Shown here: positions 25,001-58,000 of the stretch, one piece after another | Layout: every line of letters begins with the position of its first letter | How positions within the stretch are numbered: position 1 is the first letter of the stretch | Source: Octopus vulgaris | Lineage: Eukaryota | Direction: 5' to 3' | NCBI GenBank assembly: GCA_951406725.2 | Contig: OX597816.1 | Span: 107,384,001-107,448,000, forward strand | Length of the DNA stretch: 64,000 bases | Notes under the pieces: model-generated | Databases searched by the model: none | What the model was told of the DNA's origin: nothing | Seen by the model: the letters and a program-made list of their open reading frames with translations, nothing else | Made by a program: the position numbers and the translations under genes

Positions 25001-28000
25001 TTGGGGTTAAGGTAATAGCCCAGAGTGGTGGCTCAGCAGTTTTGTTAGAATATCAGACAAGTTTCTTTGCAATATCTGCTCTTTATATCACTGGTTTCCT
25101 CACATCAAAAAAACTGGACATTCAGTGATAGGCCTCCTATGTCAGATGGAGCAACATCTTCATCACATCGATGCAAATAAATAAATATATCATCATTATC
25201 ATCATCATCATTTAACGTCCGCTTTCCATGCTAGCATGGGTTGGACGGTTCAACTGGGGTCTGGGGAGCCCGAAAGCTGCACCAGTCCAGTCAGATCTGG
25301 CAGTGTTTCTACAGCTGGATGCCCTTCCTAACGCCAACCACTCCGAGAGTGTAGTGGGTGATTTTATGTGCCACCGACACAGGTGCCAGACGAGGCTGGC
25401 AAACGGCCACGCTCGGATGGTGTTTTTTATGTGCCACCGACACAGGTGCCAGACGAGGCTGGCAGACGGCCACGCTCGGATGTTGTTTTTATGTGCCACC
25501 GACACAGGTGCCAGATGAGGCTGGCAAACGGCCACGATCGGATGGTGTTTGTTACGTGCCCACAGCACGGAGGCCGGTCGATGCGGTACTGGCTACGGCC
25601 ACGTTCGGATGGTTTTCTTGTGTGCCACGTGCCACCGGCACTGGTACCACAAAGATACAAATTCCATTGATGTTCATCTATTTTGATTTGTTTTGATTTG
25701 ATTTGATTTGTTTTGATTTCATTTTGATTTTCACTTGCCTCAACAGGCCTTCACAAGTATCACAAGGAGGAAGGTATGCACAGGTGGACTGACTACGTCC
25801 CAGGTAGGGGCCATGGGATATGGCCTGACTAGTCTTGCCGGGTCTTCGGATGGTGTTTTTATGTGCCACCGACACAGGTGCTAGATGAGGCTGGCGAACG
25901 GCCACGATCGGATGGTGTTTGTTATGTGCCCACAGCACGATGGCCAGTCGATGCGGTACTGACTACGGCCACGTTCGGATGGATTTCTTGTGTGCCACAG
26001 GCACTGGTACCACAAAGATACAAATTCCATTGATGTTCATCTATTTTGATTTGATTTGATTTTCACTTGCCTCAACAGGTCTTCACAAGTGTCACAAGAA
26101 GGAAGGTATGCACAGGTGGACTGACTAGTCTTGCCGGGTCTTCGGAAGGTGTTTTTATGTGCCACCGACACAGGTGCCAGATGAGGCTGGCGAATGGCCA
26201 TGATCGGATGGTTTTTGTTACATGCCCACAGCACGGAGGCCGGTCAATGCGGAACTGGCTACGGCCACGTTCGGATGGTTCTCTTGTGTGCCACCGGCAC
26301 TGGTACCACAAAGATACAGATTCCATTGATGTTCATCTATTTTGATTTGTTTTGATTTTGATTTTCACTTGCCTCAACAGGTCTTCACAAGTGTCACAAG
26401 AAGGAAGGTATGCACAGGTGGACTGACTACGTCCCAGGTAGGGGCCATGGGTTATGGCCTGACTAGTCTTGCCGGGTCTTCGGATGGTGTTTTTATGTGC
26501 CACCGACACAGGTGCTAGATGAGGCTGGCGAACGGCCACGATCGGATGGTGTTTGTTACATGCCCACAGCACGGAGGCCAGTCGATGCGGTACTGGCTAC
26601 GGCCACGTTCGGATGGTTTTCTTGTGTGCCACGTGCCACCGGCACTGGTACCACAAAGATACAAATTCCATTGATGTTCATCTATTTTGATTTGTTTTGA
26701 TTTGATTTGATTTGTTTTGATTTCATTTTGATTTTCACTTGCCTCAACAGGCCTTCACAAGTATCACAAGGAGGAAGGTATGCACAGGTGGACTGACTAC
26801 GTCCCAGGTAGGGGCCATGGGATATGGCCTGACTAGTCTTGCCGGGTCTTCGGATGGTGTTTTTATGTGCCACCGACACAGGTGCTAGATGAGGCTGGCG
26901 AACGGCCACGATCGGATGGTGTTTGTTATGTGCCCACAGCACGATGGCCAGTCGATGCGGTACTGACTACGGCCACGTTCGGATGGATTTCTTGTGTGCC
27001 ACAGGCACTGGTACCACAAAGATACAAATTCCATTGATGTTCATCTATTTTGATTTGATTTGATTTTCACTTGCCTCAACAGGTCTTCACAAGTGTCACA
27101 AGAAGGAAGGTATGCACAGGTGGACTGACTAGTCTTGCCGGGTCTTCGGAAGGTGTTTTTATGTGCCACCGACACAGGTGCCAGATGAGGCTGGCGAATG
27201 GCCATGATCGGATGGTTTTTGTTACATGCCCACAGCACGGAGGCCGGTCAATGCGGAACTGGCTACGGCCACGTTCGGATGGTTCTCTTGTGTGCCACCG
27301 GCACTGGTACCACAAAGATACAGATTCCATTGATGTTCATCTATTTTGATTTGTTTTGATTTTGATTTTCACTTGCCTCAACAGGTCTTCACAAGTGTCA
27401 CAAGAAGGAAGGTATGCACAGGTGGACTGACTACGTCCCAGGTAGGGGCCATGGGTTATGGCCTGACTAGTCTTGCCGGGTCTTCGGATGGTGTTTTTAT
27501 GTGCCACCGACACAGGTGCTAGATGAGGCTGGCGAACGGCCACGATCGGATGGTGTTTGTTACATGCCCACAGCACGGAGGCCAGTCGATGCGGTACTGG
27601 CTACGGCCACTTTCGGATGGTTTTCTCTTGTGTGCCACCGGCACTGGTACCACAAAGATACAAATTCCATTGATGTTCATCTATTTTGATTTGTTTTGAT
27701 TTGATTTTTATTTTCACTTGCCTCAACAGGCCTTCACAAGTATCACAAGGAGGAAGGTATGCACAGGTGGACTGACTACGTCCCAGGTAGGGGCCATGGG
27801 TTATGGCCTGACTAGTCTTGCTGGGTCTTCGGATGGTGTTTTTATGTGCCACCGACACAGGTGCTAGATGAGGCTGGCGAACGGCCACGATCGGATGGTG
27901 TCTGTTAATATATATTTATGAAAAAGAACAAAAATGCTAATTTCTTAAAATTGGGTATATTTTAATTTTCCTTTATATGAATACATTAAAGGAAGAATGT

Positions 28001-55000: not shown

Positions 55001-58000
55001 TTGATGTTATCTTTATGATTTGTTGGGGACCTTGTAAGTAACAGTTTTCTTTTATCAGCAAACCTTTCTTGTGATATGTGACCAATATCTTTTTAATACC
55101 TATTGGTATTTGGCTCTAGATCAGCTTTTATAAAGCAAACCAAAGCTCAAAATGTGATTGTCTGATCTTCTGTGTTTTTTAAACTTTTTTAAATGAATTT
55201 TTTTTTATCAGCATAGAATAGCTAAGACCTTATTATTTCAGGTACTGTTATAGTGTAATATCAGTAAGGCTTGCTTGCTATTTCTAAGATTGTTAAATGT
55301 TGAGAAGCCTCTCTCTTAAGTTCTTATTTATAGTTAAAAGTTTAAAGATCCATGGTCCTATGTATACACTGTTTCTATTAGTTGGACTGGTATCTTCATC
55401 TTGATTGTTGCTTTCGTTACAATCAAGATAAAGGCACCAGTCTAACTAATATAAACAGCATATTACTTACATTCGACAGATATTTGTCCTCATCTTGTTT
55501 GTTGCTAACACATTTTGGCTGATATGCCTTCCAGCCTTCTTCGGGTGTCTTGGAGAAATTTCAAACCTGGGTTGTCATCCCTAAGGTATTTTTTGATATT
55601 ATTATTGTTCAGGTCACTGCTTGGAATCGAACTCAGAATCATGGGGTTAGTAGCCCGTGCTCTTAACCACTACACCTGGGAGTTAGTAGCCCGTGCTCTT
55701 AACCACTACGCCATATGCCCATGGGAATATGGCATAGTGGTTAAGAGTGTGGGCTACTAACCTCAAGATTCTGAGTTCGATTCCAAGCAGTGACCAGAAT
55801 AATAATGATAATAACATCGAAAATCTTAGGAATGACAACCCAGGTTTGAAATTTCCCCAAGACACCTGAAGAAAGCTGGAAAGCATATCAGCTGAAATGT
55901 TGTGTTAACCAGAAACAAGATGAGAACAAATATCTGTCGAATGTACATAATTCCTCATCTCTTAAATATAGAACTGTATAAACAACATACATAATATAAA
56001 TTCCTCATCTCAGAAATATAGAATTATATTGGGTCAGCCCATAAATAATGCAGTTGTTTTTCAATTGCATGAACTAAAAGTTGGAGGTGAACAGGATAAA
56101 CTACCTGCATCAACTTATTATAAAAGCAGGTAGTAATTTTACCTTGTCCTTATTCTTAGTGTAAGTTTTGAAGAGTACAGTTCAATTTTAGGCCATTTTT
56201 TTCAAAGCTATAATGGATGTGACAAAGGTGCATATTTGGCATATTTTGCTTGGAGTTCAATAGAGGCAACAACACAATGGAAATTGTAAGAAATATTAAT
56301 GCAGTATATGGGGATTGGACAATAAGCATAAGCCAGTGTCAATGGTGGTTCCAGAAATTCTGAGCCAGAAACTACAGCCTAGAAGACAAGCCTTGTCTTG
56401 GAAAATCTGTAAAGTTCGCTGGGAATGTCCTGAAAACTCTGGTAGAACAAAATTCCATCGTAAGTGAGGAACTAACAGGATAGCTTGGATTTGGTCGTTC
56501 AGCCATTCATTGACACCTGCGTGCCATTGGAAAGTGACCATCCTTGGTTTCAAGATGAAGTGTTCTTCCACCAGGATAATGCTTGGTCACATACAGCGAA
56601 GTTGACATTCCAATGACTGGAGCAGTTTGAATGGGGAAACAATGCTCCACTCACCATATTCGTGGGACATTGTCCCATCTGATTATCATTTATTCTGCAG
56701 TCTTAAAAATCATTTGGACAGAAAAAATGAATTCTGTAGATGATGTCAGAACAGTACTGCAGGAGTATTTTACACCACGGACAAGTGAATTTTGAAAGAG
56801 GGGACTTGCAAGTCTACCAGATAGATGGAAGAGCATTGTAGAAAATAAAGGAGAGTATATTTTAGATTAAAAAAGTACTTTCATCATCATCATCATCGTT
56901 TAACGTCTGCTTTCCATGCTCGCATGGGTTGGATGATTTAACTGAGGACTGGTGAACCAGATGGCTGCACCAGGCTCCAATCTGATCTGGCAGAGTTTCT
57001 ACAGCTGGATGCCCTTCCTAACACCAACCACTCTGAGAGTGTAGTGGGTGCTTTTACGTGCCACTGGCAGGAGGGCCAATCAGCCAGTACTGGCAATGGC
57101 CATGCTCAAATGGTGTTTTTTAGTGCAACCTGCACAGGAGCCAGCCTAGCAGCAGTGGCAACAATCTTGCTCGAATATCTTTTCATGTGCTGCCGGCACA
57201 AGTGTTAGTAAGGCGAAGCTGGTAACAATCATGCTGGAATGGTGCTCTTAGCGCTTTGTTTATCTTAATTTTGAAAAATAAAAGTATAAAAAATCCCCGC
57301 ATTATTTATGGGATCACCCAATATTATCCATAGTCCTGTTTGAAATGATAGTTTACGATTTTGAATACGTGTGAGAAATGTAACAAAAACAAAAAAATTA
57401 GAATACTATACAGTGTGATCAAAACCTCCCAAAGGAATTTTATCTTGGTTACAGAATCTGCATACCCTCTTATATATATGCAAACAGTTTTGAAATCCTC
57501 AGAAATTCCAGGGTCCTGATATTTATTTCCTGCACCCTATCTCTTAGTTTCTGTGATATAATGCAAATAATTGAGTATAGAAATGGAAAATGATTAAAAT
57601 CTAGGTACCATTATGTAAATAAATAGGTACTAATAATGATCATGGTTATGATTTTTTTATTGATATTTTATCTTTAAGGTGACAGGCTGGCAGGATTGTT
57701 ACCAAGCTGGGCAAAATTCTTAGCATTTCATCCGTCTAAGCATCCTGAGTTAAAATTCTGCCAAAGTCAATTTGCCTTTCATGCTTTCAGGGCTGATAGT
57801 GACAATACATAGTGACAGTTGATCAAATCCGCCCCAAATACTTGATTGGTACTTTATTCTAACAAGCAATGGCAGAGCATAATGCAGTAAAGGAAAAACT
57901 TCTCAAAGACCCTTAAAATTATAATGGCTGTTCCTGTTGAATTAGCTGAATTGAAATAAGATATTAAGATACATCCATCTAGGATCAAGGATACTGGCCA

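Follow-up and report, generated by a model that had tools for sequence, protein, structure and literature searches.

Minimal hammerhead ribozymes are known from the pseudo-long terminal repeats (pLTRs) of Penelope-like elements (PLEs). Cervera & de la Pena 2014 (PMC4209133; this paper and those below are cited for the passages covered) described U3-A8 cores, an additional base after A9 and pairs of motifs on opposite strands, and a natural U3-A8 pair is also found in Perreault 2011. PLE insertions usually carry a 5' copy in inverted orientation and a tail of 30-40 bp that is one-sided (Craig 2021, PMC8557442). According to Frangieh 2024 (PMC11167929), a purified PLE acts at AT-rich sites, where it nicks the two strands and extends them; reverse transcription starts at two internal sites, the tail being the span between them, and the hammerhead is protein-assisted and partly rescued by C3G/G8C. 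Tandem retrozymes are treated as PLE derivatives (Cervera 2020, PMC7229834; Li 2026 preprint, 10.64898/2026.07.22.740005), and schistosomes carry RNA polymerase III (Pol III) hammerhead retroposons in multimeric repeats that resemble short interspersed elements (SINEs) (PMC6765202; general background in PMC8969392 and PMC6962438). In Octopus vulgaris, 31 recently active PLE families have been reported, without mention of ribozymes in the parts of that paper covered (PMC13282606). Here, we analysed 64,000 nucleotides of the O. vulgaris contig OX597816.1 (positions 107,384,001 to 107,448,000, hereafter the window), which hold three hairpin insertions, named E1, E2 and E3, each bearing a predicted minimal hammerhead.

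All three insertions are head-to-head inverted pairs with a one-sided tail and, as a first-pass annotation of the window had stated, have no visible similarity to one another (best pairwise blastn E=0.23; no match between E1 and E3 at E<=1). Arm-to-arm identity is 201/216 aligned bases in E1, 132/142 in E2 and 187/209 in E3; pairing continues to a 3-nt loop in E2 and reaches the element centre in E3. The 13-bp target-site duplications (TSDs) announced for two elements are those of E2 (13/13, at 51398/51753) and E3 (12/13, at 55450/55977), and TSD lengths, with a short sister copy of E3 and E1 included, are 13, 13, 10 and ~9 nt. We conclude, with good confidence, that E1, E2 and E3 are short insertions without coding capacity that consist of a hairpin and a tail, have one intact minimal hammerhead motif each and were likely copied in by a Penelope-like reverse transcriptase (RT)/GIY-YIG enzyme. 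This mode of mobilisation, already proposed in the annotation, is well supported by the tails, the variable TSDs, the truncated and inverted sister copy and the presence of this class of motif in 15 of 80 PLE loci. All three insertions had been proposed to be non-autonomous. E2, with its fixed 5' start and high copy number, and E3, with its tRNA-like head, are likely to be true non-autonomous families; E1 may or may not be one.

Hammerheads were searched for with a descriptor (N-UGA-NN-A, an optional extra base, stem II of at least 4, GAAA, a self-pairing loop of 0-6 nt, UH and stem I of at least 3) that left positions 3 and 8 free, the relaxation that had been suggested. On both strands of the 64 kb, it matches only three times, once per element: UUGAUAA at 28279 (+), GUGAACA at 51532 (-) and CUGAAGA at 55866 (+), with U3-A8, G3-C8 and C3-G8, respectively. 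The same three matches are obtained with or without a required 3-8 pair, versus means of 0.04 and 0.12 in 100 dinucleotide shuffles. Searches for CUGANGA indeed miss two of the three families (cores UUGAUAA and GUGAACA), and the Rfam scan of the window gave no hammerhead family among 59 matches at E<=10, its microRNA matches being generic hairpins below threshold. Since CUGANGA surveys and Rfam both miss these motifs, eukaryotic hammerhead counts are likely too low. The palindromic stem III attributed to every motif is present in E1 (CAUG) and E2 (AUAU) and absent from the intact arm of E3 (UG).

The same descriptor was applied to the best 80 of 392 confirmed metagenomic PLE loci. It gave 17 matches in 15 of the 80, all on the sense strand of the open reading frame (ORF), versus a mean of 0.55 matches (0.10 Watson-Crick) in 20 shuffled sets. 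All 14 distinct strict motifs are Watson-Crick at 3-8 (C-G in 10, U-A in 2, A-U in L048, G-C in L078), while a random pair would be so 26% of the time; 4/14 are thus other than C3-G8. Related loci are not independent, yet to reach four pair types, several changes must have occurred separately. In L078, which shares the core GUGAACA with E2, RT and a GIY-YIG-like end lie in a stop-free frame of 810 aa, and the locus has a terminal repeat of 110 bp. L007 and L013, close relatives of a decayed PLE in the window, have the CAUG-UA stem III of E1. The annotation had taken the 3-8 covariation to imply selection for self-cleavage. The covariation itself is real across PLE hammerheads and marks selection somewhere in PLE history; it does not show current self-cleavage in the families of E1-E3, where half of the arms are broken and arm differences are no lower within the motif, and cleavage is dispensable for insertion in vitro (PMC11167929). 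Some loci have further peculiarities. The A3-U8 core of L048 (at 1969) lies immediately behind the GIY-YIG frame, and L017 (112-3894) encodes a 1261-aa PLE ORF with a long N-terminal extension, including a protease-like segment by eye, and has a U3-A8 hammerhead in each of its terminal repeats; L018 resembles it.

Family data were available for E2 from 4 of 24 listed sequencing runs, in the form of contigs, which cannot show RNA ends; one of the four, X15, is guessed to be RNA and, as contigs, is informative on neither transcription nor cleavage. The four runs have 8620, 11928, 4947 and 782 contigs aligned to E2, and in the two flank-bearing runs the summed depth, which is not a copy number, is 1e4-1e6 on E2 versus 20-54 in the flanks. 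In run X18, from another organism, the family is present and the flanks are absent. Loose 3' ends of the family cluster at 51752/51757 (107 and 97 in X1) and arm ends at 51698 (43 in X3) and 51410, while 46 X1 contigs end at the apex and continue into unlike flanks (agreement 0.42). Furthermore, none of the 29 changes reaching at least 5% in X1 falls in 51521-51543, and G3-C8 is therefore the state of the family, not an oddity of one copy. Where X1 changes fall within the motif, they affect loop II or replace a U.G by a C-G in stem II, which improves this stem, but the sites are too few to prove selection on the motif. Hence, E2 is a high-copy family with fixed ends, present in another organism and with no common core variant. 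Past 51559, beyond the family 5' start, 23 X3 contigs have a common short extension (agreement 0.79, median 17 nt), and a longer parent may therefore exist. Both arms share minority family alleles (51512/51593, 51457/51648, 51483/51622), which favours a single template. Left-to-right joints are many and varied (15 of 94 listed, with one 'goes back' joint among those 15) and may stem from insertion itself or from later loss of the palindrome centre by deletion. An exact 26-nt pattern from E2 was absent (0 matches) from contigs of genomes, viruses and metagenomes. Through its 7-nt deletion, the sense arm lacks A9 together with the 5' strand of stem II. An ATG-led frame of 30 codons (51666-51755) runs to the 3' end of E2, its one stop lying at a site that most family contigs read otherwise; it could be the N-terminus of a parent ORF or a chance frame.

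E3 is known beyond itself by one short sister copy. A and B boxes occur in both of its arms, the A box at +8 from the apex and the B box 45 nt further. Position 8 is where a tRNA has its A box. However, the head scores only 15 bits versus a threshold of 29 with the Rfam tRNA model (E 4.7), and aragorn matches it only at a relaxed -ps80, not at default. With scores below threshold, we therefore only infer a tRNA-like Pol III head. The lack of T4 runs was also considered as a sign of Pol III transcription and was rejected (P 0.44). The inverted arm contains a 28-nt tandem duplication (55646-55709), and its hammerhead has lost 3 nt in stem III and carries U4C and G12A. E3 is inserted in an older small hairpin whose tail resembles its own (score 65; 0/1000 shuffles as high).

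The extent initially given for E1, 27912-29721, included a mariner of 1310 bp inserted at a TA and stopped short of the tail. Since 28349-29658 is this mariner, a later insertion outside the hairpin system, the true size of E1 is ~0.5 kb and not 1.8 kb. With its unpaired spacer of 75 nt and a stem I of only 3 bp, A-U, E1 has the weakest of the three motifs, and it may be merely the truncated end of a coding PLE. Immediately to its left lies a tandem array (25357-27911, spacing 296-370 bp) with units from the 3' part of a (CAT)n-headed repeat. Coordinates of all features are given in Table 1.

Table 1. Features of E1-E3 and associated elements; positions are those of the window (position 1 is its first nucleotide). 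HTH, helix-turn-helix; TIR, terminal inverted repeat.
Feature	Position	Strand	Remarks
Decayed PLE	605..2728	-	RT and GIY-YIG
E1 left TSD-like copy	27907..27915	none	9 nt; ambiguous, TA-rich surroundings
E1 inverted arm	27912..28124	-	no tail; hammerhead with G12A, predicted dead
E1 spacer	28125..28199	none	75 nt, unpaired
E1 sense arm	28200..29721	+	split by mariner
E1 minimal hammerhead	28276..28313	+	U3-A8; 3-bp stem I, 6-bp stem II, CAUG loop; no extra nucleotide after A9; predicted cut after 28310
Decayed mariner	28349..29658	-	Mos1-type HTH, Transposase_1, TIRs, TA duplication
E1 one-sided tail	29722..29757	+	~36 nt, ends at (TA)n
E1 right TSD-like copy	29758..29766	none	after tail
Short E3-family insertion	41702..41809	+	inverted piece of 39 nt and piece with tail; TSD 10/10; hammerhead absent
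E2 left TSD	51398..51410	none	13/13 match to right copy
E2 inverted arm	51404..51552	-	holds intact hammerhead
E2 intact minimal hammerhead	51490..51539	-	G3 (51532)-C8 (51527); 5-bp stem II, AUAU loop; additional G after A9; predicted cut after 51496
E2 apex	51553..51559	none	3-nt loop; family 5' start ~51554-51559
E2 sense arm	51560..51701	+	hammerhead broken; 7-nt deletion after ~51585
E2 tail	51702..51757	+	51-56 nt; family 3' ends 51752, 51757; last bases overlap TSD
E2 right TSD	51753..51765	none	13/13
Older small hairpin with E3-like tail	55360..56030	+	~55360-55462 plus 55990-56030; E3 inserted into it
E3 left TSD	55450..55462	none	12/13
E3 inverted arm	55462..55721	-	tRNA-like head, A box 55713, B box 55632; broken hammerhead
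E3 tRNA-like head	55723..55795	+	starts at apex; A box 55730 (position +8), B box 55775
E3 minimal hammerhead	55861..55906	+	C3-G8; 5-bp stem I, 6-bp stem II, UG loop; additional A after A9; predicted cut after 55901
E3 one-sided tail	55952..55976	+	~25 nt
E3 right TSD	55977..55989	none	12/13

The decayed PLE shows that this class of machinery exists in the genome. Its RT fragment at 1624-1968 (-) is 73-74% identical to proteins of Octopus sinensis and O. bimaculoides, and a full-length relative, P0004, which we take to be Neptune-like, has RT and GIY-YIG domains and a Cys-rich linker. No loci were found with the PLE protein in viral or genome contigs. Near 340-400, there is possibly a decayed hammerhead.

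E1-E3 share a short stem I, a long stem II, a palindromic loop 3 (in E1 and E2) and opposite-strand pairs 100-700 bp apart with the hammerheads of Cervera & de la Pena 2014 (PMC4209133). The extra nucleotide after A9 of the latter is matched by E2 and E3 and absent in E1. One Schistosoma mansoni motif listed there has the core of E1, UUGAUAA. Neither G3-C8 nor A3-U8 was found in the passages of its text or supplement covered. G3-C8 is mentioned only as a laboratory variant in the passages covered of PMC3884650 and PMC8495972, and a natural G3-C8 was not found in the literature searched, which leaves outside its scope Lunse 2016/17 (PMC5785218), Arkhipova 2017 (PMC5850863), Repbase and Dfam. 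E2 naturally has the swap that was engineered in PAc as C3G/G8C, with partial rescue (PMC11167929). Moreover, E1-E3 resemble insertions of the endonuclease-bearing (EN+) PLE Poseidon PAc by their inverted truncated 5' copy, one-sided tail, AT-rich targets and insertion into an older related copy (PMC8557442, PMC11167929). They differ from canonical PLE insertions in having no ORF and, for E2 and E3, in arms that pair up to the 5' start of the element. Their tails of ~25 (E3), ~36 (E1) and 51-56 nt (E2) compare with 30-40 described for PLEs. Like E1-E3, non-LTR retrozymes are short and non-coding, with a type I hammerhead and a proposed PLE origin (PMC7229834, 10.64898/2026.07.22.740005), but they are head-to-tail tandems that give circles. 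In E1-E3, the head-to-head arrangement leaves each strand with a single sense ribozyme, and one locus therefore cannot excise a unit-length monomer. The SINE-like hammerhead retroposons of Schistosoma bear the name Sm-alpha. These combine a Pol III-type promoter and a hammerhead, as E3 does; E3 differs by its PLE-type tail, its inversion and a head at the 5' end (PMC6765202). Neither a PLE-tailed tRNA SINE nor an octopus palindromic PLE family was found in the literature searched, Repbase, Dfam and the Zenodo octopus library being outside this scope. The annotation overstated the novelty of E1-E3, since U3-A8 and the architecture were published, and the basic hairpin-plus-tail architecture is ordinary for PLEs. 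Its observation is largely real and its interpretation partly supported. The newer parts are a natural G3-C8 that holds family-wide, the occurrence of G3-C8 and A3-U8 in coding PLEs, and E3 as a candidate for a PLE-dependent SINE with a tRNA-like head.

Various results weigh against mobilisation by PLEs or against working ribozymes. The full motif had been claimed for each arm, whereas an intact core is present in 3/6 arms, one per element; the left arm of E1, the right arm of E2 and the left arm of E3 fail the descriptor. Differences between arms inside versus outside the motif are 2/37 versus 8/113 in E1, 2/44 plus the 7-nt deletion versus 8/98 in E2, and 5/43 versus 17/166 in E3; the motif is not better conserved between arms than the remainder, as expected of dead copies. 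In dimer co-folds, E2 and E3 form a duplex at stem III and E1 does not. Stem II has a probability of 0.0 in whole-hairpin transcripts and only 0.07-0.19 in sense-only ones, so that any activity requires transcription to start near the apex. The predicted fold of a whole-element transcript is one long hairpin, in which read-through would mask the ribozyme, and activity would probably also need a partner RNA or protein. As to relatedness with coding PLEs, a comparison suggested in the annotation, E1-E3 have no DNA match to the window PLE and no convincing one to the 80 loci (two weak, E 0.016 and 0.023); no autonomous partner was found among these. No RT + GIY-YIG ORF was found in E1-E3. Their 3' parts gave no match as N-termini of PLE ORFs versus 155 proteins and the locus translations, and a 53-aa frame of E2 and a 42-aa frame of E3 had no protein-database match; these are weak tests. 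Finally, Watson-Crick pairing at 3-8 is not universal: of the 20 distinct motifs found in a looser scan of the PLE loci, made with no shuffle control, 15 are Watson-Crick and the other 5 have A3.G8 or U3.G8. The non-Watson-Crick motifs come from four look-alike loci (L021:2614, L023:2570, L036:2553 and 238, L046:2706). A U-A match from the same scan, in L003, lies inside the ORF match and may be due to chance. The four look-alike loci apparently have one more U before the core, and the two motifs of L036 are in opposite orientation.

Part of these results would be explained if PLE machinery moved the elements while the hammerheads were inherited relics with no present role, their 3-8 diversity having been fixed in coding ancestors. 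This explanation, to which we give somewhat less than an even chance, is compatible with PLE mobilisation of E1-E3. It fits the three dead arms, the lack of added conservation between arms, the masking by read-through transcripts, the occurrence of all four 3-8 pairs in coding PLEs and, in Frangieh 2024 (PMC11167929), the unchanged in vitro insertion of PAc hammerhead mutants and RNA-seq without cleavage ends. It fits less well with the E2 family in X1, where changes spare the core and those within the motif lie in loop II or improve stem II; these numbers are small. A different view, in which all three are 5'-truncated inverted ends of autonomous PLEs rather than non-autonomous families, we consider unlikely. 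Truncation with inversion is a standard outcome of PLE insertion, E1 has an asymmetric spacer of 75 nt and a stem III like that of L007 and L013, and the 23 X3 contigs share sequence past the 5' start of E2. Against this, 46 X1 contigs stop at the E2 apex with unlike flanks, the position of the E3 A box, +8 counted from the apex, is that of a tRNA-derived SINE, and no ORF homology was found, though by weak tests.

That the whole palindrome would be the transposed unit, its hairpin RNA being copied in a single round while pairing keeps the ribozyme inactive, is improbable. The arms of E2 and E3 do pair to the apex, the E2 arms share minority alleles and a B-box-like match exists on the antisense arm of E2 (51460); but the E2 family has many different left-to-right joints, no A-box match was found in E2, and the short E3 copy has another junction. 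As for miniature inverted-repeat transposable elements (MITEs) or foldback DNA transposons with motifs arisen by chance, long inverted arms, high copy number and the absence of an Rfam hammerhead could recall them. However, fixed TIR ends with TA or 8-bp TSDs are not what is seen. The variable TSDs and the one-sided tails already largely refute this origin, as do the truncated and inverted copy, the finding of three motifs where 0.12 are expected and the occurrence of this class of motif in coding PLEs, and we regard it as extremely improbable.

If E1-E3 were copied in by PLE machinery, the model of Frangieh 2024 (PMC11167929) suggests how. A sense RNA with its 5' end at the apex or close to it, made by Pol III in the case of E3, would be bound by a PLE protein, which would nick AT-rich DNA and start cDNA synthesis at either of two positions. 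Of these, the outer would give the tailed arm, the inner would correspond to the end of the inverted arm, and the latter arm could result from fold-back of the finished cDNA or from priming at the second nick. Hammerhead cleavage would occur only in sense-only transcripts, as dimers or with the help of protein. The hammerhead would be inherited from the pLTR of a parent PLE, the geometry of the 3-8 pair being kept and not its letters.

The window is repeat-rich and contains other structures of interest. An older hairpin at 19697-20070, with 68% arm identity and no descriptor match, is possibly a decayed element of the same type. At 40009-40439, there is a head-to-head pair (91%) of the common (CAT)n-headed repeat, without hammerhead, and the same family is inverted at 54719-57055. 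Two similar coding-like stretches at 61700-64000 (-), one of them CCHC zinc-knuckle-like by eye, are probably retroelement remains, and very long (ACTC)n and (CACG)n microsatellites lie at 35704-36330 and 53756-54296.

More tentatively, and on balance we doubt it, octopus could harbour true PLE-dependent non-autonomous families, with E3 as a Pol III tRNA-headed SINE and E2 as a very abundant family with a working natural G3-C8 hammerhead; PLE hammerheads would then use all four Watson-Crick 3-8 pairs and hairpin apices at the 5' start would record the second-strand step of PLE insertion. Natural G3-C8 and A3-U8 cores provide evolutionary support for the 3-8 pair and ready test RNAs. The high-copy fixed-end family of E2 offers many junctions for testing fold-back versus twin priming in PLE transposition. 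Moreover, a tRNA-headed element with a PLE tail, if true, would extend SINE-partner pairs to PLEs.

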